From IMG/VR virus record IMGVR_UViG_3300031616_000014, positions 1-42,079 of that record: 42,079 nt of DNA. One strand, written 5' to 3'. A model generated the notes under the pieces. The model was not told where the DNA came from. It saw only the letters and a list, made by a program, of their open reading frames with translations, and made no database searches. The position numbers were made by a program, and so were the translations under genes. Below are positions 5,867 to 32,069 of this stretch, one piece after another (position 1 is the first letter of the stretch; every line of letters starts with the position of its first letter). This DNA is from a virus.

Positions 5867-5891
5867 AGTTGAGCAGAGATCGGACCATCAG

Positions 5892-6098: not shown

Positions 6099-6175
6099 CT
6101 ACCTCGGATATGGCCAAACTCCGTCTTGATGGAGGGGTCAACGTGGGGTAGTGGTGGGCAACACTGGAGGGGGAA

Positions 6176-6313: not shown

Positions 6314-6331
6314 TCGGGCTGAAGTAACCAC

Positions 6332-8883: not shown

Positions 8884-9827
8884 CCACCGATGATCCGGCC
8901 GCCCGCGCCGCCGCCGGAAGGCAGAGAAATCGTAATGCCGGTGGCCTGACCTACATTCATAGAATTTGTCGCCGCGAACGTACCAGCACCCGTAAAGGCC
9001 AAGCCAGAAATGGCACAGTAATCAGCCGTGAAGTTATTTCCTGAAGATATGGTTGCTTGGCCATTGGACGGGTTGTTGTTCGTGAGTAGGCACTGATTAG
9101 TTGAATTGGCCGAGATGTTGCTCAGTGTGGTGATGGTCGTCGTAATACCTTGTTGGAATTGAACGCGGTTTGGGCCTGTGATTGTTAGCGTGTTGATCCC
9201 AATAGCTGTGGCCCCTGACAACTGAAAGAACCTGTCAACGCTGCTATTAACCGTGATGTTGTTGTAGGTTTTGGATGTCCCTGCACGAAACTCTCTCTGC
9301 CCCGATGCTGTACCAGTAAAGGCAACCGTGGAGCCATTGGCGTTGAGCGTGAAGTTGGTCGACCCGGCTGCAGTCCAAATAGCGGTAGCACCGGAGAGCG
9401 TCCAAGTGCCATTGCCCATATTCAGAGTTCGGTTGCCGGCGCCAGTGCTGATGAAAGCAGTTGTGGAAGAGGAAAGCGTGACGTTGTTGTTGTTGGTTGC
9501 AAAGTCCAGCGTGCTCGGACCCGTAAAAGCACTCATATCGAGCGAGATAATTGCAACAGTAGTGTTAACCGTGACTGTGCCAGTGCCAGATGACGCATCG
9601 AACGTGGCGGAGTCACCAGTCGAAGGTGAACCTCCGGTACCACCCCCCGCACATGTGGTGCCGCCACCCGACGCTGAGGCCCATTTTATGCCGCCAGCGC
9701 CACCGCCGCCGGTGTTGGTGCCATCCCAAGAGGCTGTACCACCGACCCAAAAACACGTCACAGCATACGCAGCATTCGGCGCCAAGAATGCGAGCGCGAG
9801 AAGGAAAAGGCCGAAGAGTTTGTTCAT
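8880..9827 (-). CDS. Exported beta-helix-like repeat protein (315 aa) with a Sec signal peptide
   Basis: MNKLFGLFLLALAFLAPNAAYA/VT. The mature start CFWVGGTASWDG...GDSATFDASSGTGTVTV resembles the opening of autotransporter-associated beta-strand repeat proteins. Rich in T, N, G and S. Confidence 0.6.
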   Translation of the reverse strand: MNKLFGLFLLALAFLAPNAAYAVTCFWVGGTASWDGTNTGGGGAGGIKWASASGGGTTCAGGGTGGSPSTGDSATFDASSGTGTVTVNTTVAIISLDMSAFTGPSTLDFATNNNNVTLSSSTTAFISTGAGNRTLNMGNGTWTLSGATAIWTAAGSTNFTLNANGSTVAFTGTASGQREFRAGTSKTYNNITVNSSVDRFFQLSGATAIGINTLTITGPNRVQFQQGITTTITTLSNISANSTNQCLLTNNNPSNGQATISSGNNFTADYCAISGLAFTGAGTFAATNSMNVGQATGITISLPSGGGAGGRIIGG

Positions 9828-10939: not shown

Positions 10940-11295
10940 GGCTTCGCTGTCCCTATGACTGCTTTCAATGTGGATGTGGTGGCCGGCGTGATACCTGCCA
11001 GATACCAAGTCGAGCCAATGCCGGGCTGCTGAAGCACGATGAAGCCGCCGCCGGGAATGTAATAGCTGGAGGTCGTGGCCGTGATGGAAGAGGAAGATCC
11101 GATATTGTAATAGGCTTCCTGCGACGTGATATTGTATAAGATCACAACAGGTCCGCAGGACGGCAACACCACGTTGGCCGTGCTGGTCGTCAAAGCCCGC
11201 GAGACCTGTCCGCAGGGCGTCAACCCTGCATATTGGGCGTTGGCCCCGCCACACAAGGCGAAAAGAATCGCCAGTGAGCCAAATAGTCTAAGCAT
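10936..11295 (-). CDS. Exported protein (119 aa) with a Sec signal peptide
   Basis: MLRLFGSLAILFALCGGANA/QY. The start lies inside the portal's last codons (8-nt overlap ATGCTTAG). Confidence 0.55.
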   Translation of the reverse strand: MLRLFGSLAILFALCGGANAQYAGLTPCGQVSRALTTSTANVVLPSCGPVVILYNITSQEAYYNIGSSSSITATTSSYYIPGGGFIVLQQPGIGSTWYLAGITPATTSTLKAVIGTAKP

Positions 11296-13627
11296 GGGAT
11301 GCTCCGTTCGGTTTTGATGCTTGGGTCATTTTCTGCTTGTGCTGGAGTTCTCCTAACTCCATTGCACGAGCATGTTCCTTCTCTGACCGCTCCATCTCCC
11401 GTTGGTGCTTCAGGGTCTCGAAATGGTCCTGACGTTGCTGGCGTTCAGCTTCAAGGCGGTTCTTTTCCACCTCGGCCCCTGCGCTGATTTCGGCAATCCG
11501 GATTTCCATTTCCTTCATCTTCACGTCCATCTGCTTTATTTGCATGTTGGCCGCATTGTTCGCCTGCTCGCCCTCGTTCTCGATCCGCTGCCGCTCGACT
11601 TCCGGATCAACTTTGTTCTGCGGATTGGCCGCTTTTTCCTTGGCGTCGAGTTCGGCCTTCTCGCAAAAATCTTCAATCGCTGATTCAAGATCACGACCAA
11701 CGCGGAAGCCACGGACGGCAAATTGAAGCATTTTAGCAGCGAGCGGTGCAAACTCAGGGACCATCTGAGTTGTCTGGGCTGCAACCTCGATAAATTTCGT
11801 AACCTGACCAACAAATTCTGTTCGTGCAGCCTTCTCTTGCTCCATGTCGCCTTGGACAGTGGAGTCGGTTTCGATATCAATTCGAAATCCTCTGAGCTTG
11901 TCCTGACGCAGAAGGCCGATGGCCTCCATGATCATCGCGAGCTTGCGCTGCTGCTTCTGCTCTGGGGTTTCTTCCGGAGGCGGCCCCGGCTGCGGGAAGG
12001 GCATCGCCGCAGCCGGGGGCATCGCACCAGGAGCAGGCGGGGCTGGAGGCGTACCCGCGTCCGGCGCAATCGGAGGACCGGGAGGTGCCGGCATCATGGG
12101 AGGCCCGCCGTTGTGGCCCATCATGGGAGGCGGTCCATGGGGCGGCGGAGGTAGGGCCGGCGGATCGAGCCCTTCGTCATTCATCGCGCCCGAGACCTGG
12201 ATCAGCGTTTCAGCCCGGTATTGCTCGGAAATGATCTCGCCCATGATGGCGATGATGTCCCGGCAGAACCGTGCGATGTCGTCCTGCCGTTCCTGAATGC
12301 GGGTCGCTGAATTGTTCGTCTTGAGCCGCTGCGCGCCCATCGTTTCGCGGGCGTCAGACGTGCCGCGCATGATATCGGAAATGCCGGTGGTCCGGTCCAG
12401 ATCCGCGATGATCTGCTGACGAACTTCGATCAGGGTTTGCAGGACTTTCGCCACCATCTCGATCGGAACCCAATCGATGGCGCCCTTCAGTCCACCCTTC
12501 TCCGCAAAGACTGCCCAGCTATCAACCGGGATCAGGTTGGGCTCTTGGGCCTCTTCGAACACCCGCTTGAGGGCCTGCGCTCCGGCATCATAAACGCCGA
12601 TAACCTTGCAGGCGCCGGTCAGGACATCGATGCGCTTGGTGAGGTCGTCGATCTGCGCGTATTGGTCCTGGCTCTCGGCATAGTCCGGAACCGGGATCGT
12701 CGTGTCATTCGTCATGGTCGCATTGAGCGGACACGGACACGGGAAGAAGCCATCCAGCTTCAGGGGGTCGTCAGCCTCCTTGCAAAGCCCGTCATAGGAC
12801 TTGGCGAAGAAGTAGACCTTCCGCTCGGGCTTCCACCAAATCTCGTAGATGGTCGCCTGCATCCCATCCTTGCCGGTTACGGTGGATGAGGAGTTGTTCG
12901 ATGCCTTGGATGCGTCCTTGTCGTCACCGGGCTTGTGGTCAAGCTCGATCTTCTTTCCGATCTCTTCCCCGAAATATTCGATGCAATCGGAACGGCTCAT
13001 ATAGAGCTTGCGGCCCTTGCCCTCGATCTCGTCCTCGGTTCGGGCATAGGCCGGGAAAGTGTAGTAGTCCTGCCAGTGCAGGTAATCGACACAAACGCTC
13101 TCCCTTAGCAGTTCGTGCTCGGCTTCTTCTTCCGGCTCGGTGTCGTCAGGGACCGGATTATCCGACCCGGCAAGGTCAATGTCGTTATCACCAGACTGAG
13201 GAGGCGATATTGGTTCTCCGAAAAGGGGATAGTATCGTATCCAAACTTGTCCTCTTCCGACCAGGAGGTAGTCGTTTCGGGCGCGTCTGACCGCGCTGTC
13301 GAACCCGGCCATCTGAACTTCATAACGAAGATTCCTCTCAAGGATGGTCGATGCCATCCGCCCGGTAACGTCCTTGTCGAGAAAGCGCCGCTCGCAGATC
13401 GGAACGGGTGTCTTGGAATACAGGGCCGGTTTCAGGGTTTCGGTATTGGCCCAGAACAGGTTGAGCCGGCGTGCCACGCCCACCGAATTGTCGTCCCGCT
13501 CATCGCGGTAATGACGCAGGATTTTCTCACCGCGCTTGTGCCACTTGTTGTTCTCTTTGTCGCATTGCTCCACCTGGCTCTTCCAATGAGCCGCGAGCTT
13601 TTGACCTTCGGATTGCGGTTCAGCCAT
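11288..13627 (-). CDS. Portal protein with a C-terminal coiled coil and an internal Pro-rich insert
   Basis: LNLFWANTETLKPALYSKTPVPICERRF and the following W/Y-rich core match the N-terminal pattern of podovirus portals. The long charged C-terminal helix (QRIENEGEQANNAANMQIKQMDVKMKEMEIRIAEI...) is P22-barrel-like. The track start is TTG 13654; I prefer ATG 13627. Confidence 0.75.
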   Translation of the reverse strand: MAEPQSEGQKLAAHWKSQVEQCDKENNKWHKRGEKILRHYRDERDDNSVGVARRLNLFWANTETLKPALYSKTPVPICERRFLDKDVTGRMASTILERNLRYEVQMAGFDSAVRRARNDYLLVGRGQVWIRYYPLFGEPISPPQSGDNDIDLAGSDNPVPDDTEPEEEAEHELLRESVCVDYLHWQDYYTFPAYARTEDEIEGKGRKLYMSRSDCIEYFGEEIGKKIELDHKPGDDKDASKASNNSSSTVTGKDGMQATIYEIWWKPERKVYFFAKSYDGLCKEADDPLKLDGFFPCPCPLNATMTNDTTIPVPDYAESQDQYAQIDDLTKRIDVLTGACKVIGVYDAGAQALKRVFEEAQEPNLIPVDSWAVFAEKGGLKGAIDWVPIEMVAKVLQTLIEVRQQIIADLDRTTGISDIMRGTSDARETMGAQRLKTNNSATRIQERQDDIARFCRDIIAIMGEIISEQYRAETLIQVSGAMNDEGLDPPALPPPPHGPPPMMGHNGGPPMMPAPPGPPIAPDAGTPPAPPAPGAMPPAAAMPFPQPGPPPEETPEQKQQRKLAMIMEAIGLLRQDKLRGFRIDIETDSTVQGDMEQEKAARTEFVGQVTKFIEVAAQTTQMVPEFAPLAAKMLQFAVRGFRVGRDLESAIEDFCEKAELDAKEKAANPQNKVDPEVERQRIENEGEQANNAANMQIKQMDVKMKEMEIRIAEISAGAEVEKNRLEAERQQRQDHFETLKHQREMERSEKEHARAMELGELQHKQKMTQASKPNGASHA

Positions 13628-13733
13628 TCGCCAGTCTAGCCATGTATAGCCCAAATGATTTGGGGCGAATTATACGCAACTCTACTAGCGCTAAGCAGTA
13701 TTCTCCCGACTTATACAGAAGTAGCCAAAGCTT

Positions 13734-17163: not shown

Positions 17164-17700
17164 CTACTGTTCTAGAGAGAGCGTCGCTCTCTCACTTGGT
17201 TTCGTGTAATTCAGGCGAGAGGCTTCATGCGGACAGACGCCACCATTGTGGTAGCGACCTGAATTGCAGTTGAAGCAGAGGATGCGGAACGACTTTGGAA
17301 ATCCATTATCGACAAGCCACCGGAATAATGTGCTTCCTGGAGCAACCTCTTTGCGATGCTCGGCTCCATTGTCGTCTGCATGATCGATCGTCAAAAACTT
17401 CGGTTCACTCTCTCCACAGCATGCGCATTCGTGTCCGTAGTGATCGAAAACCACCTTTTTCCACTTTTGATAATGGCGCCGGCGCGTCTCCGCTTGGTAC
17501 TCCGGGTTTTTCCGATATTTTATGCGATCATAAATTTTCAGCCGATCGCTGTTCTTTTCGCGCCAAGCAGATTGATAGCCGTTGCGTTCTGCACTCCAGC
17601 AAGGAATGCAAAACTTCCGGAAATAAAACTTGCCACCCTTCATCTTCTGAAAGCGCGCTAGTTCCTTCTCCTGCTCGCAGGATTTGCAAATGCCAATCAT
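17164..17700 (-). CDS. HNH endonuclease (free-standing, homing-type)
   Basis: CACCGESEPKFLTIDHADDNGAEHR...LCFNCNSGRYHNGGVCPH gives the HNH/zinc-finger signature. RBS GGGAGAA. Visibly lower GC than the flanking structural genes. Confidence 0.8.
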   Translation of the reverse strand: MIGICKSCEQEKELARFQKMKGGKFYFRKFCIPCWSAERNGYQSAWREKNSDRLKIYDRIKYRKNPEYQAETRRRHYQKWKKVVFDHYGHECACCGESEPKFLTIDHADDNGAEHRKEVAPGSTLFRWLVDNGFPKSFRILCFNCNSGRYHNGGVCPHEASRLNYTKPSERATLSLEQ

Positions 17701-21174: not shown

Positions 21175-22040
21175 GTGAACGCAGGCCAGGCCTGCCCTCC
21201 ATAATTCATGGTTGAAGCCGTTCCGCCTCCGCCGAACCCTGAGAACATGCTGCCGAGCCCACCAGCCAGAGACGTTCCACCCGTCATCGGCGCCATGGCG
21301 AGGCCAACACCAGCGCCTGCGAGCTTGCCAATGTTGTTCCAGGTGTCGTTGTAGGACTTCATCTCATTCTCGTAATTCGACTGCACCGCGCCCGAGTAGT
21401 TCGGCGGCTGGATGGTCGCTTGAGGTGGCGATTGATATGTGCCTGCGGTCGGAGCAGATGCGCCGAACAGGCTGCCAGCCGTCTGCAACGGCGCCTGATA
21501 CTCCTGCAGCGCCTGCCCGAACGCCTGCCCCTGATTTTTCGTCAGGTAGTTGGTGGTGATATCGCCCTGATTTCTGGCCTGAAGATTTTTTGCGTTGTTA
21601 TACGCCTCCGTTCCAGGCTGAAGGCCCTGATTGCGAAGCTTGGCCTCCAAAACCGAATCCTGCTGATTGAAGATTGGCTTGAGATACTGCGCATTCCAAT
21701 CGTTCAGCTTGGAAGCAACGGCGCCTGATGCGGAATTAAAGTCCGGCGCCTGCGAGTACATGCTCTGGGTATTGCGCAAGAGATCCTGCGCAGTCTGCCC
21801 AGCGATTTGCTGCGTACCAGTCCGGGTATCCAGAAGCCCCTGCTGACCCTGATTGAGCGACTGCACAATCCGATAGCCGGACGGGCTCGATGAATCAGGA
21901 ACGTAGTTTACGCTGCTAAACGGGTTGGACTGGTCATAGGAGTTGTTTCTGTTCTGAGATTGCGCCGCTTGCAGGTTGAACCCGGCTTGCGCATTGCTTG
22001 TTGCAGTCGGATCGGGTGCATCTGGCTTATTGAAACTCAT
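21171..22040 (-). CDS. Internal virion protein (289 aa), Q/N/G-rich
   Basis: Q/N-rich with a Gly-rich hydrophobic C-terminus (LAGAGVGLAMAPMTGGTSLAGGLGSMFSGFGGGG). ATGA coupling at both ends. Confidence 0.45.
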   Translation of the reverse strand: MSFNKPDAPDPTATSNAQAGFNLQAAQSQNRNNSYDQSNPFSSVNYVPDSSSPSGYRIVQSLNQGQQGLLDTRTGTQQIAGQTAQDLLRNTQSMYSQAPDFNSASGAVASKLNDWNAQYLKPIFNQQDSVLEAKLRNQGLQPGTEAYNNAKNLQARNQGDITTNYLTKNQGQAFGQALQEYQAPLQTAGSLFGASAPTAGTYQSPPQATIQPPNYSGAVQSNYENEMKSYNDTWNNIGKLAGAGVGLAMAPMTGGTSLAGGLGSMFSGFGGGGTASTMNYGGQAWPAFT

Positions 22041-22453
22041 TGCATGGTTCTCCCCGCCAGATGCGCAAGCTTCTCGCCAAACAGCCCGTACATCACCGCG
22101 TCCTCATTCCCGAACCCGTGATGGCGAACGCCCTCAAAGACGAAGCCGAGCTTGTGGATGCTCTTTTTGAGGATCTTGTTTGATTTCTGGGTGCGCACCG
22201 TGATCCGGCTGACCCCGAAATGATCCACCGCTATCTTGGCAAGCTGCTTGACGATATCGAGCGTCAGCGTGTTCGGGCCGTAGTAGGACAGCTCAATATC
22301 CGGCCCGTTGTGAGCCTGGAAGAAGCAGGCACCGATCAGCCGGTTGTCCTCGGCAATGCCACAGGCAAGGTCCACCTTCGTGCACAGCACGCCGAACGCC
22401 TGATAGGTCCAGTCGATAACCAGTTGATCGTTGCCTGTGACGAGGACTTTCAT
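22037..22453 (-). CDS. GNAT-fold acetyltransferase-like protein
   Basis: C-terminal ITVRTQKSNKILKKSIHKLGFVFEGV resembles the GNAT beta4-alpha3...GF.eG region. The canonical Q/RxxGxG/A loop is not evident. Confidence 0.45.
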   Translation of the reverse strand: MKVLVTGNDQLVIDWTYQAFGVLCTKVDLACGIAEDNRLIGACFFQAHNGPDIELSYYGPNTLTLDIVKQLAKIAVDHFGVSRITVRTQKSNKILKKSIHKLGFVFEGVRHHGFGNEDAVMYGLFGEKLAHLAGRTMQ

Positions 22454-24063
22454 CAGAAGAATGCCTTTGCTGGTTCGGCGATGAGATCCCAGCCGTTCAA
22501 CTGCAACAGAACCCCTCCCGTGGTTCCGTTATCCGAGGTCACGACTTGCGTGATGATCGAGGCGCACTGCCCGATGCCCTCAACCGTCGTCCAGTTGGCG
22601 ACCGTTGCCGAGTTCGGTGGCCAGATCGCCTGATCCCACAAGGCGACATCCCACTGCGCGCCGCCTGTGTTGATGGTCGATGGAATGGAGATCGGAGCGC
22701 CTGAGCCGAAATCGATGTTCAAACCGATGCCGGGCGTGACCGTGCCGTCTGTGGTCAGGATCGGCCGCGCCATGGTCCAGCGCTTCAGATGCCCACGGCT
22801 CTCGAAATAGTTGAACGCGGTTTGAACCGTTGCCGTGATGGGCAAATCGGTGACATCGACATAATCTCCCGAACCGATATCGAATTGATAGAGGTTACCG
22901 TCTTCCGCCCCGAAATACGGCACATCGTTGAGAATATCCCAGCAGTTCGCGTTGAGGCCCGTGAACTGGCACCACGCGCCGGTCAGCGTGTTCATGACGT
23001 ACTGAACGACGGTCTGTCCCTCAACCTGCGGAATGTTGAGGATGACGAGTTGCCCCTTAGCATACTCCATCAATTGCCAACCAAAATTGGCCTTGTAGAG
23101 CCGGGCAGAGTTCATCATGGCATTCTGGATCATGGTCGTGGGCGCGACCTTGGCCACTGCCGCACGGTCCAGCGTCATCATCTCGGACATCGGAGTGATA
23201 CCATCCACACTGATAATCCAGAGATTGCCTGCAATGCGGAGGAAGCAGCGGCGGCCGATCGGAGCGCCGAGATCGTAGATGCCTACGAGTGCAAACGTGT
23301 CCGCCGTCGTCGGGTCAGTGCCGGCGTAAATGATGACTTGCCCGCGCGAGGTGATGAAGCAGATATATTCATCGACGTTCTGCTTGTCGTCCTGCGTCCA
23401 TGTCGCAATCGCCTGAATGAAGCCGCCTCGGCCCATGTTCTGACCGAGATCGAACAGCGTCACGTCCCCCGAGATCGCGCTGTTGGCGAGATAACCGACT
23501 TTGGTTGAGTTGACGAACACACACCAGATGCGGCCCTTCCAGACCGTCCAGCTTACAATGTCGTTGGCGGAGTATCCCGAGCCGGTCAGGGTCATCGCCG
23601 CCCATGTCGATCCGTCATAGATGAACGGAGGATCGACGCCATTGGCGCAGGGCATGAAGGCATTTGAGGCCGCATTGGTGAAGTTCACCGACTGCACCCG
23701 CGAATTCGAAAGCCCTGTCTTGGTGGTGATCGCAGCTACCCCGCTTGCGGTCACGTCATAGACATCGCCGCCCCCAACCGCGAACATCTTGGAATTCGCA
23801 ACGTTCGGCGAATTGTAAACCAGGATGCTTTCAACATGGGTCGAGCTTGTTCCGATACCGGTTGCCCAGACCTGAGATCCTCTCCGAACCTCCAGATAAC
23901 CGGGCCGTGGGATGAAATTGTCCAACTGCACCGCATGATCGGGCGGCATGTCGGCAAGCGAGGAGATTTGATCCCAGCCCTTGATGGAAGCGGGAATAGA
24001 CATCGGGAACGATTTTCCCGTGCCCTTCATGAAATCGTTTTTCATACTCAGGGAATTGCGCAT
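22453..24063 (-). CDS. Tail nozzle / tail tubular protein B-like structural protein (536 aa)
   Basis: Size, position and N-terminal pattern (AVQLDNFIPRPGYLEVRRG, beta-propeller-like repeats) resemble podovirus nozzle proteins. One-nt TAATG coupling. Confidence 0.45.
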   Translation of the reverse strand: MRNSLSMKNDFMKGTGKSFPMSIPASIKGWDQISSLADMPPDHAVQLDNFIPRPGYLEVRRGSQVWATGIGTSSTHVESILVYNSPNVANSKMFAVGGGDVYDVTASGVAAITTKTGLSNSRVQSVNFTNAASNAFMPCANGVDPPFIYDGSTWAAMTLTGSGYSANDIVSWTVWKGRIWCVFVNSTKVGYLANSAISGDVTLFDLGQNMGRGGFIQAIATWTQDDKQNVDEYICFITSRGQVIIYAGTDPTTADTFALVGIYDLGAPIGRRCFLRIAGNLWIISVDGITPMSEMMTLDRAAVAKVAPTTMIQNAMMNSARLYKANFGWQLMEYAKGQLVILNIPQVEGQTVVQYVMNTLTGAWCQFTGLNANCWDILNDVPYFGAEDGNLYQFDIGSGDYVDVTDLPITATVQTAFNYFESRGHLKRWTMARPILTTDGTVTPGIGLNIDFGSGAPISIPSTINTGGAQWDVALWDQAIWPPNSATVANWTTVEGIGQCASIITQVVTSDNGTTGGVLLQLNGWDLIAEPAKAFF

Positions 24064-25007
24064 TACGCATCCCCCGGATAGTTCGCATCCTGAACGTTAT
24101 ACGGGCTGAGCAGATAGGGCTGGAACCGCTTACCCATGGTGAGTGTCGGCGCGCCACCGTCACGCGCGATGAGCTGCTGCACATAGTCGTTGTATTCGAT
24201 CTGCATCGAAGCAGCGGTCGGAATGCCCTTTGCCTGTAGAAAACGCCACTTTGTCCCGAGAATGATCGCCTGGGAGTCGAGGATCGGCGTATCAGTATCC
24301 AGTGTCATGGATGCTTGCAGAGGTCCGGAAACCGGACGCACCCAATTCAGCGAGAGATATTCCCATGCAATCTGGAACGGCGTATCAACGGTTTGAGGTG
24401 GTGGCCATAGACGGTACGTGCCTGCTGTTAAGGAGCCTACTTGACGGAAGTGTCTACGTGGTCCCGTCGTCACGATTCCTGAGCGGTGGTATTCGTCTAG
24501 TTGCGGAGAGTCCGGGCCAAGAAGTGCCCAGCGATTGGTTCTGTCCCACGCGGTCCCGTTCAGGAAGCGGTCAAAGTCAGCGTTCTCCGGATAGGTGTCC
24601 TTTGCAAACGTCAGAGCCGTCGCTGTAGCGGGCCCCGTCGCAACCATGTCCATTGTAACCTGCGTGGCGCTATCCACACTCAGCACGCGCGCTGCCACAG
24701 GGATCATGCTTCCAGACACAACGAAGGTTTCCGCCGTGATTGCCGCCGTTGACGGAATACCCGTGATGATGGGAGAGCCGAGAGAAACGGTTCCCGTCGT
24801 GACCAGTGGCGCCCCGACATTCAGCGTGAACAGGCTTTGCAGTACGGTCCAGTTATGGGTGCGCTTGAGGTTGTCGCCCTCGCGGTTGACCAGCGCATAA
24901 AGCTGCGCTGTTTGGAGATCGGTCGCGCCAACAACGGTCGAGGGCTGAACCAGACCTAGTTCAGCCGTAACCGCCTGGACGATTTCGATCAGCGAGAGCT
25001 GCGCCAC
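24063..25007 (-). CDS. Adaptor / tail tubular protein A-position structural protein (314 aa)
   Basis: GTG start. The N-terminus LSLIEIVQAVTAELGLVQPSTVVGATDLQTAQLYALVNREGDNL is typical of head-tail joining proteins in podoviruses. Assigned by position. Confidence 0.4.
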   Translation of the reverse strand: MAQLSLIEIVQAVTAELGLVQPSTVVGATDLQTAQLYALVNREGDNLKRTHNWTVLQSLFTLNVGAPLVTTGTVSLGSPIITGIPSTAAITAETFVVSGSMIPVAARVLSVDSATQVTMDMVATGPATATALTFAKDTYPENADFDRFLNGTAWDRTNRWALLGPDSPQLDEYHRSGIVTTGPRRHFRQVGSLTAGTYRLWPPPQTVDTPFQIAWEYLSLNWVRPVSGPLQASMTLDTDTPILDSQAIILGTKWRFLQAKGIPTAASMQIEYNDYVQQLIARDGGAPTLTMGKRFQPYLLSPYNVQDANYPGDA

Positions 25008-25376
25008 TTAGGCCCCCAGAACAGCAATCCATGCCGTTGAACTGATGCGATACCAAATCTGGACCGTCGTCGCGTTGCAGGTCTCGCCAGCATCGGTCGA
25101 ACCGCTATTCACGGTGCCGCCTGTGTGGGGATAGACCTTGCCGTTTCCGGCAGCGGTATTAGCGACTACGATCGGAGAAAGCAGCGGAACAGACGAACTC
25201 ATGCGGATGCCATCCGAGCCGGATGCCGTCATGACAAAAACGGTATTTTGCCCATCGCATGCGGTGGCATTGGCCGAAGTCGTGCCGGCTGCGGTAATGG
25301 CGACATTAGCGTCACCAAGCGCTATCGCTTGCGGCCACGAAAATCCGAGGCCCATCATGTCTGCCATTTTGGTCAT
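25008..25376 (-). CDS. Small virion-module protein (122 aa)
   Basis: Track ORF packed in the structural operon. Rich in A, T, S and G. Confidence 0.45.
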   Translation of the reverse strand: MTKMADMMGLGFSWPQAIALGDANVAITAAGTTSANATACDGQNTVFVMTASGSDGIRMSSSVPLLSPIVVANTAAGNGKVYPHTGGTVNSGSTDAGETCNATTVQIWYRISSTAWIAVLGA

Positions 25377-26168
25377 TTAGCTCTCCTTCGGTTTGTTGGG
25401 TATTCCGGGCGGACGGCCACGGCGTTTGGCAGGCTCAACGGAGCCGGACAAGTCCTGAACGAATTGAGCGGGGGCCTGAAGATGCGCTTGGCTGTCATCC
25501 GCGCTCGCGTGAACGCGGTTGATCTGCGTTTCCTGGAAGTCATAGGTCTGTGGGTTGGGCGGTGCGGACTGCTTCTGATGCACCAGCGTGGCTAGTTCCT
25601 GCATCTGACGGGTCAGCGTCGCAATCTGCTGATCCTTCTGCGCAAGCGCGGTCTCGAACTTATGGTGATCGACGCCCTTCTCGGCGCGATCGAGGTATTT
25701 CTTGGCCGCGTTCACCCAATCCTGAGCGCCCATGCCAATGGTTGAGATGCCATGCGCCGACAGATGCGCGAGCTGTTCAACGGTGTGGATGTTGTAGCCG
25801 CGAAGCGTCGTCTCGACTTCCGGCTTGGTCGGAAACAGCAGGTTGATCGGGATGCCGTCCGGTATCTGGTTGACGCCCTGCAGATACTGCGCCCATTTGT
25901 TCGGCCAGCGCGCTTTATCGCTATCGTTGACTTCGCGATCGACCACATTCAGACTTTCGCCCGGATGCTGGATCTTCACGAAGTCGCGGCTTTCATGCAC
26001 GGGAACGCCCTGCACGGCCGACTTGGCCCTATTGAGAATGGACTTTTTGTAGAAGCCAACCATCAACTGCGTATCATCGGCGCCGGAATTGGCCATGCCC
26101 CAGCCCTGCCGGTTGACGGCAGCTTCGTCGTACTTGATAGGCGCGAAAGGCGTATAGGAATCACTCAT
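25377..26168 (-). CDS. Virion-module protein (263 aa), function unknown
   Basis: ATGA coupling to the upstream gene. It has a coiled-coil segment (ALAQKDQQIATLTRQMQELATLVHQKQ) and a basic tail (KRRGRPPGIPNKPK). Confidence 0.5.
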   Translation of the reverse strand: MSDSYTPFAPIKYDEAAVNRQGWGMANSGADDTQLMVGFYKKSILNRAKSAVQGVPVHESRDFVKIQHPGESLNVVDREVNDSDKARWPNKWAQYLQGVNQIPDGIPINLLFPTKPEVETTLRGYNIHTVEQLAHLSAHGISTIGMGAQDWVNAAKKYLDRAEKGVDHHKFETALAQKDQQIATLTRQMQELATLVHQKQSAPPNPQTYDFQETQINRVHASADDSQAHLQAPAQFVQDLSGSVEPAKRRGRPPGIPNKPKES

Positions 26169-26980
26169 GCTGCTTTCTCCCGGTTAATCAGTGCGTCCAC
26201 TTTGGCCCTCATGTCTTTCCAGACATCGGCAAACAGGCTGTCTCCGTGCACTGTGACGGAGAACAAGTGGCCGTAGTTCGTGCAGAGCCTCTGAAGGTCC
26301 TGCGCTTGTGCGATCAGCGGAAGCGTCGTCTTGAACACGCGACCATTGAATTCCGTGTCGTAAATTTCGTTTGTGTCGGTATCGTCCGGATAGGCGAATT
26401 TCTCCTCCTCAAAGGACGAATCCACCCCGAAGAAATGAAGGCCCGTATATCCAAGCACCATGCCGAGCGCGATCGAGCGAAGGGCTGCTGTACATCCTCC
26501 GGGGATCTGGCCACGGCCCTCGAATATCTCGTTCGGATAGTCCCCGGCCACGTGCCACATGACGATGCGCTGGCCCGATAGCTGGGTGAATAGCGTCGGA
26601 TGACACTGCGTCGCCAACAGATAGGTGCAGCCTGCCTGTGGATTGGTGAACCACTGGGGCGACGGCATCGCATCGCAAAACACGGTGTAGTTTGGAGCTA
26701 TACCCTGAGAAATCACATGATCATGGGCGCTCGAGCAAACGAGAACGTCGCCCTTGAAGGCGCGAAGATCATCAATCGTGTGCTTGAGCGAAGGTCCACC
26801 CCCAACGATGGCGAGCGGCCGCGACTTCTTCAGATGCTTTATTTCGGTCAGGAACGGATAACTTAGCTTCGAATTGGCAACAATGTTCCCTACCAAACTC
26901 TCCTGAAAGTTTGGCCAGACCGAAACAACCGCAGGTTCCCAGACCGGGGAGGTGCCCCCGGTCTGAGTTTCTTCGAGCAT
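26165..26980 (-). CDS. DUF115 / MptE-like (Maf-type) putative glycosyltransferase
   Basis: The true start is ATG 26980 (MLEETQTGG...), sharing one nt with the upstream TAA; the 105-aa upstream extension of the track ORF overlaps the decoration gene and looks non-protein-like. RPLAIVGGGPSLKHTIDDLRAFKGDVLVCSSAHDHVISQGIAPNYTVFCDA matches the PF01973 core pattern (ivG.GPSL...L......v....sa...L...gi.Pdy.v..D). Confidence 0.6.
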   Translation of the reverse strand: MLEETQTGGTSPVWEPAVVSVWPNFQESLVGNIVANSKLSYPFLTEIKHLKKSRPLAIVGGGPSLKHTIDDLRAFKGDVLVCSSAHDHVISQGIAPNYTVFCDAMPSPQWFTNPQAGCTYLLATQCHPTLFTQLSGQRIVMWHVAGDYPNEIFEGRGQIPGGCTAALRSIALGMVLGYTGLHFFGVDSSFEEEKFAYPDDTDTNEIYDTEFNGRVFKTTLPLIAQAQDLQRLCTNYGHLFSVTVHGDSLFADVWKDMRAKVDALINREKAA

Positions 26981-27546
26981 TACTGCGTGACCCCGACGAC
27001 CGGGAAGTTCAGCATTGCCTGCGCGGTGGCAGTAGTTGCTGCCGTGGTGAGAACCACGCCGGCCATGATCGAGGTCGTGCTGGCAACCGACGCGGAGGAT
27101 AGCTTGCCCGCCGTGGTCGTGGTGTAGAGCAGGACATTCTTCGTGGTCGAGGCAATGATATTGATGCCCGCACACTTTCCGGCCCGCTGGAACCATGCGT
27201 ATTGGCCGCTGGTAACGGCCGTGAACGGCTGAGCACCCAACCAAGCACCGAGCTTGGACGCAGCCAGCGTGTTCGTAACGGAGTCGGCCGTCCACAAGGC
27301 CCCGGTGTTGGTGAGGATAACAACGTCACCAAGGGTGATGTTGCTCCCAGCCAGCGCGTAGACCCATTCCGAGCCGTCCGCACCCTTGGATACCTGCCCC
27401 AGGGAATACTGACCAGTCGGGCTCGGGTAGTCCGGGTTATTGGTCGAGGAGACCGCCGAGGACTGCGCGTAACCAGTGTAAGTTGCCGTGTAGTCAGCAC
27501 CCTCAAGTCCGATGGTGCTGAAGCCTGCAATATTCGGATTAGCCAT
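26980..27546 (-). CDS. Head decoration / cement protein candidate, Ser/Thr-rich (188 aa)
   Basis: Immediately follows the major capsid gene. GDVVILTNTGALWTAD...GQYAWFQRAGKCAGINI resembles decoration-protein beta-sandwich motifs. By my count 47 of 188 residues are Ser or Thr, with tracts such as YTTTTAGKLSSASVASTTS and LTTAATTATA. Confidence 0.5.
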   Translation of the reverse strand: MANPNIAGFSTIGLEGADYTATYTGYAQSSAVSSTNNPDYPSPTGQYSLGQVSKGADGSEWVYALAGSNITLGDVVILTNTGALWTADSVTNTLAASKLGAWLGAQPFTAVTSGQYAWFQRAGKCAGINIIASTTKNVLLYTTTTAGKLSSASVASTTSIMAGVVLTTAATTATAQAMLNFPVVGVTQ

Positions 27547-27555
27547 GTTCAGACC

Positions 27556-28590
27556 TCACGTGTTGTAAAGGACGCCCTGAAGGAAGGCGTTGGAAAGGGT
27601 CATGTTGCCGGCCCAGCCGATCAGCTTCACCATCGCGTCCTGGTTGACGGAGAAGCGGTCCGGATCAAGCGGAACCATGTTGCGACGGGAATGCGGGCGC
27701 CAATGGATGTACTTGGTATTGAGCATGTACATCGTATTGGCCGGCGCACCGCCGACAGCGGAGGTACCACCAGAGGTCTGGTAGGGCAGCGGATCGGCTG
27801 CGTAGCCCTGGAAGCCACCGTCCAGCACGACATCAGCCGTGTTGTACTTGAGCGACTGGAAGCCCAGCGTTCCATGCTCACCGGCGCCGTTCTCGGACGC
27901 GATGCGCTGGATCGCCTGAAGCGACTGCCAGTAGAACTTGTACATGTTGTTGTCCGCCACGATCAGATCCGGGGAGTCACGACCACGAACCTGAAGCAGC
28001 CACAGCGAATCCATGTAGTTCTGGATGTTCGCAGCGGTCGCCGCCGCACCGCCGTTGGTGACAGCGCCATAAGCCTGGTTCTGCCAGAACGTCCATGTCG
28101 CACGATCGATGCCGCCGACGATGCCCGAACCGGGCGAGGACGAGACGAGCAACTGAACCCCGTTCACGGAGCCGGTCACGGTGCCGTCGCCATAGACGCC
28201 CTGCGACATGCCGTTCATGAACGTATCTTCGGCGTTCTCAATCCGGCTTTCGAGCAGGTCGATGATCGCCTCTTCGCCCGAGTTCTGGAGTTCTTCCAGG
28301 CCCGAGATCGAAACCGCGACCGCCGACTGGCGGATTGGAAATTCCGCAGCCGAGAAGGTCTGCGACGGCGCGATGTTCAGGGTCTGATAGCCCGAATACC
28401 ACTGGAACGTCTGGTTGTTGGCGTAGTTGAGTTCCTGGACGATGGTACGGCCACCGCTGAAGGTCTTCATCCGGCCGCGCTTGGAAAGACGAGCCAACAG
28501 CGCATTGTTGCGGCTCATGTTGTCTGCGAGCTGACCCGTGCGATTCCGTAGGGTCGTGGTCACGATTTCAGAAAGATTCGGAAAGGCCAT
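27556..28590 (-). CDS. Major capsid protein (HK97-fold family)
   Basis: 344 aa, directly after the scaffold gene. N-terminal LRNRTGQLADNMSRNNALLARLSKRGRMKTFSGGRTIVQELNYANNQTFQWYSGYQTL fits the conserved opening of a podovirus/BPP-1/epsilon15-type coat family as I recall it. Confidence 0.8.
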   Translation of the reverse strand: MAFPNLSEIVTTTLRNRTGQLADNMSRNNALLARLSKRGRMKTFSGGRTIVQELNYANNQTFQWYSGYQTLNIAPSQTFSAAEFPIRQSAVAVSISGLEELQNSGEEAIIDLLESRIENAEDTFMNGMSQGVYGDGTVTGSVNGVQLLVSSSPGSGIVGGIDRATWTFWQNQAYGAVTNGGAAATAANIQNYMDSLWLLQVRGRDSPDLIVADNNMYKFYWQSLQAIQRIASENGAGEHGTLGFQSLKYNTADVVLDGGFQGYAADPLPYQTSGGTSAVGGAPANTMYMLNTKYIHWRPHSRRNMVPLDPDRFSVNQDAMVKLIGWAGNMTLSNAFLQGVLYNT

Positions 28591-28606
28591 TGCCTACCCC
28601 TTTGGG

Positions 28607-29719
28607 TTAGGCCCGGTTCCTCTCCTGCACCTCGTTCATAGCGGCAAGGATTGATCCTCGTACACCAGCAGCGCTCTTGTCAGCTCCATTCGCCGGAACG
28701 CCTTGACGCGCTCGGGGAGCCGGGGAGACGGCAGCGAGACGGGCTTTCGCAGCCGCCTCTTTCTGTGTTTTTTCGAACTCGGCCTTGCGCTTTTCTTCCT
28801 GCTCTCGCTGGCTCGCCTCGAAAAGCTCGTCATTCATCCGGAGCGCCTTTTGATAGGCAGCTTCCAGATCGTTCTGAGCGACCACGCCAGCCTGCATGAG
28901 TTGCCCCATGGAGACGCGCAGTTTTTCGAAGTGCGGATGGTCTTTCGCGAAAGAGGAAATTTCAGAAGCCACACGGTTCTGTTCCGCCAACTGTTGAGCG
29001 TTGACGAATCCGGTGACGGTCTGCCTAAGCTGGCCTACTTCGTCTAAAACAGGTTTTAGGTGGTCCGGGATCGCCTCGCCGCCATCTGAGGGCGCGGGAG
29101 ATTGTCGGGCGAATTGTGAAAGGTCAACGCCATAGGTGTGGGCAAGATTGTGGAATGCCTGCAGCTGCGTCTGAGGATTGGCGAAACTGGCTTCCCACTG
29201 GAAAAGGCGGCTGATGGCCTCTGCGTCATTCTGCACCCCGAATTGCTGAAATCGGGAGCGGCTTGGCGCTAACACTTGCTCTATGGCTTCATACTGCTTG
29301 GTCTTTTCCGAATAGCTCTTGAAGCCATTCGATACTTCTTCTTCCCGCTTGGCGACATCCTGTCTGATGGGATGATCGGGCGGAAGAGAATTGAAAAATT
29401 CCTTGGACTGTTGCGACCAGCCCGGCGGTGGCCCCACAGGTTTTGACGCCTGCGGGGCTTGCTCTGCCGGAGCGGTCGCGTCCCTGTCCACTGGGACTTC
29501 TTTGGCCGCAGCGGGAGATTCCGCGCTGACCTGTTTCGCCTTGAATTTGCCAGTCTCATCGCGCTCGCGGTCGCCGACTTCCTTCACAGCGCTGTTGAGC
29601 GCCTCGCGAATGGATAGCGGCTTGTCCGGTGTCGAGGTATCGCGGCCAATGTCACCCCCAGACGATTGAGCAATATCCGCGCTCTCGGCTGCATGGGTGT
29701 CGGCAAGTTCGTCAGCCAT
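28607..29719 (-). CDS. Scaffolding protein
   Basis: 370 aa, acidic and helical, Ala/Glu/Gln-rich. Located immediately upstream of the capsid gene, behind an AT-rich intergenic region. Confidence 0.65.
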   Translation of the reverse strand: MADELADTHAAESADIAQSSGGDIGRDTSTPDKPLSIREALNSAVKEVGDRERDETGKFKAKQVSAESPAAAKEVPVDRDATAPAEQAPQASKPVGPPPGWSQQSKEFFNSLPPDHPIRQDVAKREEEVSNGFKSYSEKTKQYEAIEQVLAPSRSRFQQFGVQNDAEAISRLFQWEASFANPQTQLQAFHNLAHTYGVDLSQFARQSPAPSDGGEAIPDHLKPVLDEVGQLRQTVTGFVNAQQLAEQNRVASEISSFAKDHPHFEKLRVSMGQLMQAGVVAQNDLEAAYQKALRMNDELFEASQREQEEKRKAEFEKTQKEAAAKARLAAVSPAPRARQGVPANGADKSAAGVRGSILAAMNEVQERNRA

Positions 29720-29873
29720 ATTCTATCCCGATAAGAATAAATCGGAACATAAGGCTGATTTGGCTGGCGATTAAAGATTAGTTTGAGAATTACAGAGTTT
29801 TACACACTATCGAATACTTGGAACGATTGATTGAACCGCGAATTGTTCGTGCTCACACAACGGAGATTTGCTC

Positions 29874-30077
29874 ATGACCGCAGCTACCGCAGTGAAAGAC
29901 AAACCAGAATCCAAGGATCGCCCCGGCAGCGCCAATGAAGCGCTCGCAGCCGTTAACGAGAACCACACGTGGGTCAAGGAGCCAGAAGATCTGACCACAA
30001 GCCCCGGCCTTCAGCGCGCCGTTCAGGAAAACCGTGACGCTATTCAGGCGCTAGCTGACTACATCGACAAGAAGTGA
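29874..30077 (+). CDS. Small hydrophilic protein on the opposite strand within the late region
   Basis: ATG 29874 lies 9 nt after GGAG (29861-29864). 67 aa. Divergent from the scaffold gene and convergent (2-nt gap) with 30080-30382. Confidence 0.4.
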   Translation: MTAATAVKDKPESKDRPGSANEALAAVNENHTWVKEPEDLTTSPGLQRAVQENRDAIQALADYIDKK

Positions 30078-30079
30078 GG

Positions 30080-30382
30080 TCATCGGTTCTTTAGTTCGTA
30101 AATCGTCCGCTTGATATCCTCAACCCGCTGGCGCTTATCCAGCTTGATCGGCTCGCGCGGCCTGATCGGCTCGTTACCAAGCTCTACCATGCCTGCAGCT
30201 CTGGTTTCAGCCGAAAAGGCCCGCTTGCTGTCGATCACCTTCCCCGTGCCGTGGTGCTTCAAGGGCGCCATGGTGTCGGAGATGACGGCCACCGACCATG
30301 GCTTGGTGTCGTGAACGAGGTGGCGCTCTACCATGCCGTTTTCGTTAGCGTTCGGGTGGTTGGGGCGATAGATCCAGCTCAT
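30080..30382 (-). CDS. Hypothetical protein
   Basis: 100-aa track ORF. One-nt TAATG coupling to the upstream ORF. Confidence 0.55.
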   Translation of the reverse strand: MSWIYRPNHPNANENGMVERHLVHDTKPWSVAVISDTMAPLKHHGTGKVIDSKRAFSAETRAAGMVELGNEPIRPREPIKLDKRQRVEDIKRTIYELKNR

Positions 30383-30567
30383 TAGCGCTTTCTCGTTTTT
30401 TCAGCGGCTATGTCGTATAATTCTGTTTCAGTCATTTTCCGATTTAGAACTTGTTCGCCAAGCCTTATTGCTGACCAGCCATAGGCAAGGGTGAGTTCTT
30501 GCATCCCCCGCTCCAATGCATCTCGGCGCAATGCCTTTATCGCTTCATAGACATTCTTCTCGCTCAT
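30382..30567 (-). CDS. Hypothetical 61-aa protein
   Basis: ATG 30567 (MSEKNVYEAIK...) overlaps the terL stop (ATGA). Confidence 0.5.
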   Translation of the reverse strand: MSEKNVYEAIKALRRDALERGMQELTLAYGWSAIRLGEQVLNRKMTETELYDIAAEKTRKR

Positions 30568-32069
30568 ATCCTCGCCCTCCTCTGCGGCGCCTGCTTCTCC
30601 CACAGATCGTCCAATGAAACCTCGTTGTGCGGACCAACGCCCAGGATTTTCCCAGGCGTATGCTTCACCACGTCCTTGATGTACGGACGGCTCATGCAGG
30701 CGTAGCGGACCTCATCAGGCGCGTGGTCCTCGTTCTCGGTGTCTACGTCCTCCGGCTTGTTCTGGTCATGCTGGAGCGCCGGCAGCGTTCTTATGGTGTC
30801 TCGGCAGGTGGAGAAGAAATAGATTCCAGGCCGTTCCCCATCACCCAGGAGACGCGCTCGTACCTGATCCCATCCACCAAGAGCGCCTCGGGCGGAAACT
30901 CGGGCGTTGTCGGCACGACGGAAGAATACCTTCCGGGTTGCCATTCGCTCACCGATAGACGGACCGCCGTCACTCGCAAAGGCAGCGGGGTCGAGTACCC
31001 CATAGGAAATAGGACTTTGACCATCTAACCCTCTTGGCTCATCTGTCTCTCTCGCTATGATGCCGTCTGCTACGTCTTCGGCGGGTAGTTTGATGCCCAC
31101 ATTGGGAGCCGACGCCCCATACCATTCCCGGTAACGGACGAGAGCACCTCTAGGTAGGCTTCGTAAGCCACCTTGTTGACCCAGATGAAAGTCGTCTCCG
31201 ACAACTGCCCACCATCCGATACTAAAGGGACGAGCACTCCCCCAATCGCCCGATCGGAAGCGGAGCCAAGTTGCTGGAATTTGAAACGGCGCGATGACAT
31301 GCTTAGCCTCCGAGAATTCAGGGAAGAACGCCCCCTCGATCACTGACCAATCGCCCTCAAGCCACGCGCGAACAAGCTGAGCATTGCCTACCATCTGCAG
31401 GTTCGCAACGTATTCCGAGCCGAGGTAACGGTTATCTTGCAGCTTGGATGGGATATAGATGCGGTCGCGCTTTACCTGCTGTTTGGTCCATGGGTTTTCG
31501 TAGGTCTCGCTGATCGTTTTCCAGCCCAGAGGAGCCGGGTCGATATAACGGGCGCGAACCCATTGATGCCCCGGCCCGCCAGGGTTGCCGGTAGCCCTAA
31601 AACCACAAGGTATTCCATGCCCTGACCGAAGCGTTGCCATGAGCTTAAAAATAGGGCTTGGAGATGGAAAGGTTCCAATCTCCTCAATATAGACACGCGT
31701 ATGAGAACGCCCCTGATATGCATCCGCATCCGAGTCGCGATCCAAGTATGCGAACTGGAATCGCGAACCATTCGGGAATCGCCACAGCTTCTCTTGCTCA
31801 TGAAACACCGCTCCCAACGGTTTGAATAGTTGCCGGCTGCGTTCGATCGTGTCCACCAACTGCGTCCGCTCGCGCCGGAACATGATCGCGTTGCAGTGCT
31901 CGCCATATTGATCCTGATGGCTTACGAACTCGCCCAGCATTCCGTCGGTCTTGCCGCCGCCTCTCGCACCACCAAAGAAGATTTCGAAGATCGGACAAGC
32001 CAACAAAGCTTCCTGGGGGCCCGGTTGAGGCCCCCAGATCACGGTGTATTCGGTAGACGCTCTAACCAC
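30564..32069 (-). CDS. terL: Terminase large subunit
   Basis: Walker A FGGARGGGKTDG. Also FRRERTQL, YIEEIGTF (Walker B-like) and GNPGGPGHQWVRARYI, followed by a C-terminal nuclease region (DWGSARPFSIGWW...). 501 aa. Confidence 0.9.
   Translation of the reverse strand: MVRASTEYTVIWGPQPGPQEALLACPIFEIFFGGARGGGKTDGMLGEFVSHQDQYGEHCNAIMFRRERTQLVDTIERSRQLFKPLGAVFHEQEKLWRFPNGSRFQFAYLDRDSDADAYQGRSHTRVYIEEIGTFPSPSPIFKLMATLRSGHGIPCGFRATGNPGGPGHQWVRARYIDPAPLGWKTISETYENPWTKQQVKRDRIYIPSKLQDNRYLGSEYVANLQMVGNAQLVRAWLEGDWSVIEGAFFPEFSEAKHVIAPFQIPATWLRFRSGDWGSARPFSIGWWAVVGDDFHLGQQGGLRSLPRGALVRYREWYGASAPNVGIKLPAEDVADGIIARETDEPRGLDGQSPISYGVLDPAAFASDGGPSIGERMATRKVFFRRADNARVSARGALGGWDQVRARLLGDGERPGIYFFSTCRDTIRTLPALQHDQNKPEDVDTENEDHAPDEVRYACMSRPYIKDVVKHTPGKILGVGPHNEVSLDDLWEKQAPQRRARI

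Follow-up and report, generated by a model that had tools for sequence, protein, structure and literature searches.

The IMG/VR virus record IMGVR_UViG_3300031616_000014 (positions 1 to 42,079; this whole stretch of 42,079 nucleotides is hereafter the window) carries, among its head genes, a small gene whose predicted product resembles the catalytic domain of the flagellin-modifying enzyme Maf. The gene follows directly on that of a serine/threonine (Ser/Thr)-rich candidate head decoration protein, and the window phage, which is temperate and Mx8-like, together with many uncultured relatives, probably sugar-coats its own virions. The reading that we favor, at a probability of roughly 55%, is that this enzyme, here called mini-Maf, O-glycosylates a virion surface protein, likeliest the decoration protein, using the cytidine monophosphate (CMP)-ulosonic acids of its host. 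An earlier interpretation of the letters alone (hereafter, the sequence-only reading) had proposed phage-encoded O-glycosylation of the capsid surface, and computational checks of family membership (PF01973), Maf fold, catalytic acids, decoration fold, and gene adjacency support it, with no refuting outcome among them. We infer the glycosyl-transfer activity, the sugar donor, and the acceptor from the genes and their surroundings. The two genes concerned are as follows.

26165-26980, minus strand: 271-aa stand-alone Maf-type (PF01973) putative protein O-glycosyltransferase, the mini-Maf.
26980-27546, minus strand: 188-aa predicted capsid cement/decoration protein, family c15, 25% Ser/Thr, likeliest acceptor.

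An automatic listing lengthens the enzyme open reading frame (ORF) to a GTG at 27295; we preferred the 271-aa version (MLEETQ...REKAA) because its length and N-terminus agree with those of the homologues. The GxGPSL...D core quoted in the sequence-only reading lies exactly within this ORF, and the family to which it was assigned there is the right one: the Pfam match to PF01973 (E 3.4e-15; 56.7 bits versus a gathering score of 34.6) pairs enzyme residues 35-192 with profile positions 9-170 of 171. PF01973 was present in all 57 homologous clusters retrieved by database search (~260-300 aa each), and no family covering the enzyme was found in PHROGs or NCBIfam. A profile search of 1.84 billion representatives counted 3,189 clusters (E<=1e-10), or 1,387 under the stricter limit of E<=1e-30 (50% identity), with most family members measuring 255-310 aa.

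Within PF01973, the enzyme falls on the Maf side and not on the archaeal-kinase side. When its sequence profile was compared to the Protein Data Bank (PDB), Maf of M. magneticum (5mu5) matched at E 1.4e-13, in an alignment restricted to residues 246-426 of its 666. The archaeal MptE 6-hydroxymethylpterin diphosphokinase (8SD5), a pterin-biosynthesis kinase that has the superfamily fold and the GxGPS loop in common with the enzyme, is a much weaker match (E 0.11). An AlphaFold2 model of the enzyme (predicted local distance difference test, pLDDT, 92.6) agreed, with 5mu5 as the top Foldseek match (E 1e-8; query template-modeling score, TM, 0.60), followed by MptE and then a GT29 sialyltransferase, even though identity in the structural alignment with 5MU5 was only ~17%. 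Compared to predicted viral structures, the model matched unnamed 'MptE-like' proteins of uncultured phages (TM ~0.8), some of them 540-714 aa long. Across 49 aligned homologues, residues G61, G62, P63, L65, G177, F184, G185, and Q225 do not vary, S64 is nearly invariant, and H86, D87, D103, H182, and D187 are conserved in at least 90%. The presumed active site comprises the following elements.

26789-26803, minus strand: GGGPS motif (residues 60-64), presumed nucleotide-binding loop, pairing with the GSGPS motif in Maf and with GAGPS in archaeal MptE.
26672-26674, minus strand: D103, nearly invariant, aligned with Maf E324 in the 5mu5 alignment.
26420-26422, minus strand: D187 in the FGVDS motif, aligned with Maf D415.

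E324 and D415 are reported to be critical to the activity of M. magneticum Maf, and so are their equivalents in Clostridium and Geobacillus (bioRxiv 10.1101/2020.06.03.131540). Judged by alignment, both acidic residues that are essential in Maf are kept in the phage enzyme as D103 and D187. What is missing is the rest of Maf: the three-domain architecture of ~600-700 aa, with N- and C-terminal flanking domains, is absent from the 271-aa enzyme, and its gene lies between capsid-decoration and head genes and not in a flagellar or flagellin-glycosylation locus. No flagellar genes were found among the window ORFs scanned (domain scans covered the ORFs of 100 aa or more, except several of 100-260 aa at 1-6500 and beyond ~34200). 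The enzyme is therefore best described as a stand-alone Maf-type catalytic domain and not as a Maf, having the domain and the active site without the architecture and the flagellar context. Pterin genes, which an MptE kinase would be expected to accompany, were likewise not found near it.

The enzyme might not be a glycosyltransferase at all, being instead an MptE-like pyrophosphokinase, another nucleotide-binding enzyme, or a non-catalytic head-assembly factor that kept an ancestral fold. PF01973 is named for the archaeal kinase, Foldseek also matches the MptE kinase (E 5e-6, TM 0.51) and thiamin pyrophosphokinases, and the commonest fusion partner of the domain is a methyltransferase and not a glycosyltransferase. 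However, in the profile search Maf is ahead of the kinase by 12 orders of magnitude, the acids that serve catalysis in Maf are conserved, and invariant residues of catalytic type argue against a purely structural role. Neighbors and fusions of the enzyme in other phages, described below, include GT2, GT8, a sugar C-methyltransferase, a NeuD-like acetyltransferase, and NeuB. We regard a function outside glycosyl transfer as very improbable.

The gene of the 188-aa protein, the likeliest acceptor under the glycosylation reading, begins 10 nt past the stop codon of the major capsid protein (MCP). At the sequence level its sole match is weak (phrog_29386, 'virion structural protein'), and its AlphaFold2 model (pLDDT 83.2) contains a beta-rich domain. 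The decoration role suggested for it in the sequence-only reading was backed by Foldseek matches to Pam3 capsid chain G (1.4e-5) and HFTV1 capsid chains (5e-4). Further matches, like these all capsid-surface proteins, include the base of the phi29 head fiber gp8.5 (8e-4), the TW1 capsid-stabilizing protein (1.4e-3), the decoration chains of Sf11 and T1, and, at lower strength, lambda gpD. Fold and gene position thus support a head decoration protein, and its capsid location is a prediction because the TM-scores are moderate (0.41-0.49). Trimeric cement/decoration proteins such as lambda gpD, TW1 gp56, Pam3, and the phi29 gp8.5 base resemble it in predicted fold and in the position of their genes after the MCP gene. 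It differs from them in having no detectable sequence similarity, in the unusual Ser/Thr richness of its predicted surface loops, and in being paired with a modifying enzyme. Its 19 Ser and 28 Thr make up 47 of 188 residues (25.0%), the number counted earlier from the translation, and both Ser/Thr tracts singled out at that time are present, coinciding with predicted loop and disordered segments of the model.

27073-27156, minus strand: residues 131-158, IASTTKNVLLYTTTTAGKLSSASVASTT, Ser/Thr-rich loop, mostly coil in the AlphaFold2 secondary structure, candidate glycosylation sites.
27427-27462, minus strand: residues 29-40, SSAVSSTNNPDY, Ser/Thr-rich N-terminal segment, probably disordered (pLDDT <50).

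Homologues of the decoration protein encoded beside the enzyme contain more Ser/Thr than those encoded without it (23.8%, n=16, versus 18.1%, n=37; Mann-Whitney p 2e-5), in a comparison that rests on roughly five lineages and carries no phylogenetic correction. The difference sits in the loop and terminal segments and not in the core:

Residues 27-40: Ser/Thr fraction 0.35 with the enzyme, 0.22 without (p 0.004).
Residues 50-130 (core): 0.17 with, 0.15 without (p 0.12).
Residues 131-147: 0.30 with, 0.16 without (p 3e-4).
Residues 148-160: 0.35 with, 0.21 without (p 0.002).
Residues 161-175: 0.32 with, 0.20 without (p 0.003).

Following the invariant G147, enzyme-less proteins mostly read 'xxDDxxxA' or 'VVSPTAVA', whereas enzyme-bearing ones read 'RLxS/TxS/T'. 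This loop pattern is what an acceptor would look like.

The surrounding head block gives the enzyme gene its setting. Scaffold, capsid, 188-aa, 271-aa, 263-aa, 122-aa, 314-aa adaptor-like, 536-aa, and GNAT genes follow one another, and the following products could be assigned.

28607-29719, minus strand: probable scaffolding protein, family c12, assigned by its position upstream of the MCP gene and a conserved neighbor cluster.
27556-28590, minus strand: MCP of the Mx8 type (phrog_9953, E 4.5e-110).
25377-26168, minus strand: 263-aa head-module protein, homologue of Mx8 p50 (phrog_20268).
25008-25376, minus strand: 122-aa Ser/Thr-rich (22%) protein, family c17, alternative acceptor.
24063-25007, minus strand: 314-aa head-to-tail adaptor-like protein, homologue of Mx8 p51 (phrog_6013, E 1e-31), at the end of the head block.

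The MCP shares 55% identity with its counterpart in Bradyrhizobium phage ppBjS10J-1 and 48% with the one in Myxococcus phage Mx8. The 263-aa protein matches ppBjS10J-1 WAX24473 at 3e-25 and Mx8 p50 at 1.5e-15 by BLASTP, homologues of the 314-aa protein contain PF24175 (SU10_adaptor), and the product of 28607-29719 had no Pfam or PHROGs family match. In Mx8 the order is capsid p48, virion protein p49, p50, tail protein p51, p52, and GNAT p53. Because the 263-aa and 314-aa proteins are the p50 and p51 homologues, the 271-aa gene is an insertion between the p49-like and p50-like genes. The overlap TAATG between the stop of the 188-aa gene and the enzyme start (26978-26982), noticed in the sequence-only reading, is real, and the enzyme stop in turn overlaps the ATG of the 263-aa gene (ATGA, 26165-26168). 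No promoter-like site was found in 24000-30600. These overlaps show the enzyme gene to be translationally coupled on both sides inside the head operon. A palindrome in the enzyme gene might limit its translation relative to the abundant decoration protein; it is perfect and lies 15-40 nt past the start codon, within the coding sequence.

26940-26965: palindrome with a 10-bp stem, CAGACCGGGG-AGGTGC-CCCCGGTCTG, within codons 6-14 of the enzyme gene.

This gene arrangement bears on two other targets for the enzyme. It could be directed at the host, glycosylating flagellin, pilin, or another surface structure and thereby blocking superinfection or causing lysogenic conversion; Maf enzymes do act on flagellin, the phage is temperate (integrase, 2002-3270), and surface glycosylation can protect against phages (bioRxiv 10.1101/2022.03.25.485807). 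Genes for conversion, however, usually lie at operon ends or near the attachment site. This gene is instead buried in a late head operon, where its start and stop codons overlap with the adjoining genes and nothing promoter-like lies close to it; its product lacks the flanking domains of Maf, and its position in the structural module is conserved across unrelated capsid lineages. Together these points make a host target improbable. To an acceptor other than protein (phage DNA, or a host glycolipid or polysaccharide) we give very little credence. Glycosyltransferases by which phages modify DNA or O-antigen are well documented (PMC12619734; bioRxiv 10.1101/2023.12.21.572611). Here, by contrast, no DNA-hypermodification genes are adjacent, the gene belongs to the head and not the replication module, and the sole characterized glycosyltransferases of the family act on protein Ser/Thr.

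Comparison with other viral contigs showed that the placement in a structural module is general. A scan of IMG/VR yielded at least 476 enzyme relatives, and ORFs were called and clustered in the best 80 loci (by a simple longest-ORF rule, so that some lengths are overestimated). In nearly all of these 80, the enzyme gene lies inside the virion structural module. Mx8-like contigs have the order scaffold, capsid, c15 decoration, enzyme, and p50 family, often continuing with the 122-aa family and the adaptor. In Mx8-like loci with the enzyme, its gene stands downstream of that for the decoration protein, and in most of them the two are direct neighbors; the gene pair noticed in the window recurs in related phages. 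Enzyme relatives also occur in structural modules of several unrelated capsid lineages. In a freshwater/environmental group, a ~475-aa methyltransferase-enzyme fusion lies between paralogous 150-aa proteins (phrog_644; 25-34% Ser/Thr), an arrangement with Ser/Thr-rich paralogues on both sides that we saw in ~45 freshwater contigs; the locus adjoins tail-like (phrog_2941/10775) and fiber-like Ser/Thr-rich proteins. In a P22-type phage (L004), the enzyme gene follows the coat gene and two 93-aa paralogues, and in L030 and L057 it follows the portal. The factor common to these groups is a small Ser/Thr-rich virion protein. A single acceptor family for all of them was ruled out (hhalign probability 0.2%).

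Two diverged mini-Maf copies occur in one head module in L015, L017, L018, L087, L089, L099, and L012, where one copy follows the decoration gene and the second directly precedes the 122-aa Ser/Thr-rich family. This duplication suggests one enzyme per acceptor or per sugar. In the related phage L133, a 386-aa protein (8152-9312) encoded between the 122-aa family and the adaptor gene carries an ADP-ribosyltransferase domain (ART-PolyVal, E 2.9e-8), another type of enzyme cargo in the head module.

The same chemistry could be aimed at another virion protein, namely the 122-aa protein (25008-25376), the MCP, or tail fibers or spikes. This is consistent with the second enzyme copy before the 122-aa family, with the tail-like and fiber-like neighbors in the freshwater group, with the position after the portal in L030 and L057, and with further structural proteins of the window that are equally Ser/Thr-rich; moreover, PMC12619734 reports both capsid and tail-tube subunits of mycobacteriophages to be glycosylated. 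Against it stand the position of the enzyme gene in the window lineage, where it lies downstream of the decoration gene as its direct neighbor and often overlaps it, and the Ser/Thr enrichment of the decoration-protein loops, which tracks enzyme presence. We consider a different virion acceptor unlikely, if by no means far-fetched.

The strongest circumstantial evidence for the function of the enzyme comes from sugar enzymes in its neighborhood, which were surveyed over flanks of 5-6 kb in related contigs, so that donor-pathway genes further off would escape. In L016, the domain is fused to a GT2 and a GT8-like region, and upstream of the fusion lies a nucleoside diphosphate (NDP)-sugar 3-C-methyltransferase of the TcaB9 type (PDB E 2.6e-46). 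Fusions to an S-adenosylmethionine (SAM) methyltransferase occur in many loci. Neighbors in the slot between capsid and p50 include GT8 in L092 and an FkbM methyltransferase in L122 and in L198 (Caulobacter). L156 has a hexapeptide acyltransferase whose best NCBIfam match is to the NeuD/PglB/VioB sugar acetyltransferases (E 9e-30, below the cut-off). A domain scan of 118 representative neighbors found, besides structural proteins, one NeuB-family protein, in L057, where terminase, GT2, NeuB-family synthase, portal, mini-Maf, and a Ser/Thr-rich 148-aa protein are encoded in this order (1064-6164). The synthase matches SpsE (2e-37), sialic acid synthase (5e-28), and pseudaminic acid synthase (1e-24), and this phage thus encodes part of the donor pathway itself. 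In the window, no sugar-biosynthesis domain was found among the scanned ORFs, in line with the sequence-only reading.

Two phages close to that of the window (L094 and L095; capsid 79% identical) have no Maf-like enzyme and carry a 463-479-aa protein between the decoration and p50-like genes (L094, 7055-8446; L095, 3440-4879). It combines N-terminal tetratricopeptide repeats (TPR; E 1e-15) with a C-terminal GT9-like domain of the GT-B type, which is weakly matched (Pfam E 7.5e-4, below the gathering threshold; heptosyltransferase II 1psw, E 0.044). Its occurrence in this slot suggests a functional replacement of the Maf-like enzyme. FlmG of Caulobacter, which is likewise composed of TPR and GT-B and represents a second class of flagellin pseudaminyl/legionaminyl transferase, binds its acceptor through the TPR (PMC7591256). 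The slot protein, which lies outside the window and whose GT9 match stays below the Pfam cut-off, has the same two-domain architecture, reminiscent of FlmG or OGT, and a possible kinship with FlmG is supported at the level of this architecture.

In the mechanism that we propose, the enzyme would be a minimal stand-alone version of the Maf catalytic domain, produced late in infection along with the head proteins. It would bind a CMP-activated ulosonic acid via the GGGPS loop region and use D103 and D187 in transferring the sugar to Ser/Thr hydroxyls on exposed loops. The gpD/TW1-like decoration protein would be the likeliest acceptor, through loop 131-158 and the disordered segment 29-40, and the 122-aa protein may be another. 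Modification would take place in the cytoplasm, before or during capsid assembly, much as Maf modifies flagellin prior to export (PMC4065374). Given that the window has no detectable sugar pathway, the donor must come from the host, presumably from its pseudaminic or legionaminic acid pool where one is made, or else possibly as CMP-3-deoxy-D-manno-octulosonate (CMP-Kdo). Maf enzymes accept CMP-Kdo and CMP-N-acetylneuraminic acid (CMP-Neu5Ac) besides their native donors, and CMP-Kdo is universal in Gram-negative bacteria, so that CMP-Kdo would be the fallback donor. Because the enzyme lacks the flanking flagellin-binding domains of Maf, the acceptor would be recognized via the core and the conserved C-terminal 80 residues (including the invariant Q225), or via the assembled capsid lattice. 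The likely benefit to the phage would be a capsid coated with acidic glycans, which might shield it or change its adhesion.

The distribution of the enzyme shows that it is an accessory cargo gene of the head module. Counting from the capsid gene, with 69 Mx8-like viral contigs having at least 3 kb downstream as the denominator, it was present in 18 of 69, nearly always between the capsid/decoration genes and the p50-like gene. In bacterial genomes and metagenome-assembled genomes (MAGs), it was found in 7 of 68 capsid-anchored loci and on a short Xanthobacteraceae MAG contig (8 prophage loci altogether). Among the carriers are a complete chromosome of Caulobacter sp. and a MAG labeled Magnetospirillum, host labels of MAGs being unreliable. 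The former (L198; Caulobacter sp. UC70_42, chromosome 4070604-4083572) holds an Mx8-like prophage in which the gene for a 488-aa variant of the mini-Maf precedes that for the FkbM methyltransferase, and as this host is cultured and completely sequenced, it offers a practical experimental entry point. Neither tblastn of the enzyme nor megablast of a 12 kb segment gave a match in 50,697 deposited phage genomes; hence no cultured phage in that collection carries the enzyme gene. The enzyme alignment, searched in 185,579 species genomes with an overly strict pattern, gave no match either. An obligate co-occurrence of decoration protein and enzyme, seen in 4/4 look-ups, was rejected since most decoration homologues in capsid-anchored loci are without the enzyme; the 4/4 was an artifact of a query alignment built from enzyme-linked members.

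Several of these observations weigh against glycosylation of the decoration protein by the mini-Maf. The decoration family is common without the enzyme (~51/69 loci lack it), and as most enzyme-less loci have a homologue of it, the decoration protein does not need glycosylation. The Ser/Thr-rich families that neighbor the enzyme in different phage groups show no detectable homology, so there is no single conserved acceptor. The dependence of the Ser/Thr comparison on so few lineages, uncorrected for phylogeny, is a further point, and some enzyme-less decoration homologues are also Ser/Thr-rich. Other structural ORFs of the window reach 27.0%, 24.7%, and 22.1% Ser/Thr, and ppBjS10J-1, which has no such enzyme, still reaches 24.9% in its post-capsid protein, which is weakly similar (BLASTP E 0.002). 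Ser/Thr richness alone is thus not specific to enzyme carriers. In addition, donor-sugar genes are not detectable in the window, the enzyme is without the N- and C-terminal domains of true Maf (271 versus ~600-700 aa), and the inclusion of a kinase in PF01973 makes a chemistry other than glycosyl transfer formally possible.

The head region lies on the minus strand of the window, which has 57% G+C and, in the simplest reading, represents the whole genome of a temperate phage or a prophage. Besides the head block, domain and family scans identified an endolysin gene and the following.

2002-3270: integrase, a marker of temperate lifestyle.
11288-13654: portal.
30564-32069: large terminase.

The portal gene lies ~17 kb away from the terminase gene, past head, tail, and lysis genes, whereas in Mx8 it directly follows the terminase; the arrangement in the window is unusual within this phage group. 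A GNAT acetyltransferase gene (22037-22453) occupies the same place of the virion module in Mx8 (p53), ppBjS10J-1, and the window phage, and it may encode a second protein-modifying enzyme for virion proteins. An HNH endonuclease gene (17164-17700) is located within the structural block of the window, and HNH also interrupts the equivalent block in L087 and L088. No tRNA gene or att-site pointing to a host was found in the window; the best host clue is the Xanthobacteraceae MAG contig, which encodes a capsid protein with 88% identity to that of the window phage.

Compared to known systems, the enzyme is closest to Maf (M. magneticum 5MU5, Aeromonas caviae Maf1, and the enzymes of C. botulinum and G. 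kaustophilus), with which it has PF01973, the GxGPS loop, and the essential acids in common. The predicted activity is also alike, being cytoplasmic O-glycosylation of Ser/Thr in a self-assembling surface protein with CMP-ulosonic acids as expected donors. It differs in its length of 271 aa, in its location in a phage head operon, and in its predicted acceptor, a capsid decoration protein and not flagellin. The glycosylation of flagellin by enzymes of the Maf and FlmG types has been studied well. In mycobacteriophages (Che8, Rita, and others), glycans on capsid and tail tube shield the virion against antibodies (PMC11256854 and PMC12619734, citing Freeman et al. 2023). The proposed system resembles theirs in that a phage-encoded enzyme would put glycans on virion surface proteins and coat the capsid. 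According to these two papers, mycobacteriophage glycosyltransferase genes lie near the right genome end, the glycans are attached at subunit C-termini, and the hosts are Actinobacteria. Here, by contrast, a Maf-type domain is encoded in the head operon, prophages are mostly in Proteobacteria genomes, the presumed acceptor is a separate decoration protein, and the system is predicted from genes. Full-text literature searches brought up no account of a Maf-type enzyme in phages or of a connection between such an enzyme and capsid genes, and a search on glycosylation of Haloferax tailed virus 1 found nothing. New here are the enzyme family and its setting only, as phage-encoded capsid O-glycosylation itself is already known from mycobacteriophages with other enzymes. 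To our knowledge, virion glycosylation has so far been shown for mycobacteriophages only.

Taken beyond the window, the minimal Maf may define a modular system, widespread in phages, by which virion surfaces are capped with sugars resembling sialic acid (nonulosonic acids or Kdo), a generalization that is tentative and that we would bet slightly against. In such a system, a ~270-aa core would stand beside the Ser/Thr-rich surface protein that each phage happens to use (decoration, head-fiber, or tail-fiber protein), would sometimes be extended by GT2/GT8, methyl- or acetyltransferases, or a NeuB of its own, and would be interchangeable with the TPR-GT-B protein. Acidic glycan coats would then be an overlooked common feature of phages of Gram-negative bacteria, and the mini-Maf would be the smallest known protein sialyltransferase-like enzyme, one that recognizes its acceptor without the accessory domains of Maf.

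If the O-glycosylation reading is true, the mini-Maf would help to answer the question in the flagellin field of how Maf-type enzymes recognize their acceptors. As a compact stand-alone Ser/Thr ulosonic-acid transferase with a small, defined partner, it would be attractive for glyco-engineering, and with two small genes the system is directly testable in E. coli. Capsids with a glycan coat would be a common trait of temperate and environmental phages, both those of Proteobacteria and those of other bacteria. This would bear on phage stability, adhesion, and immune recognition in therapy, and possibly on mimicry of the flagellar or capsular sugars of the host.

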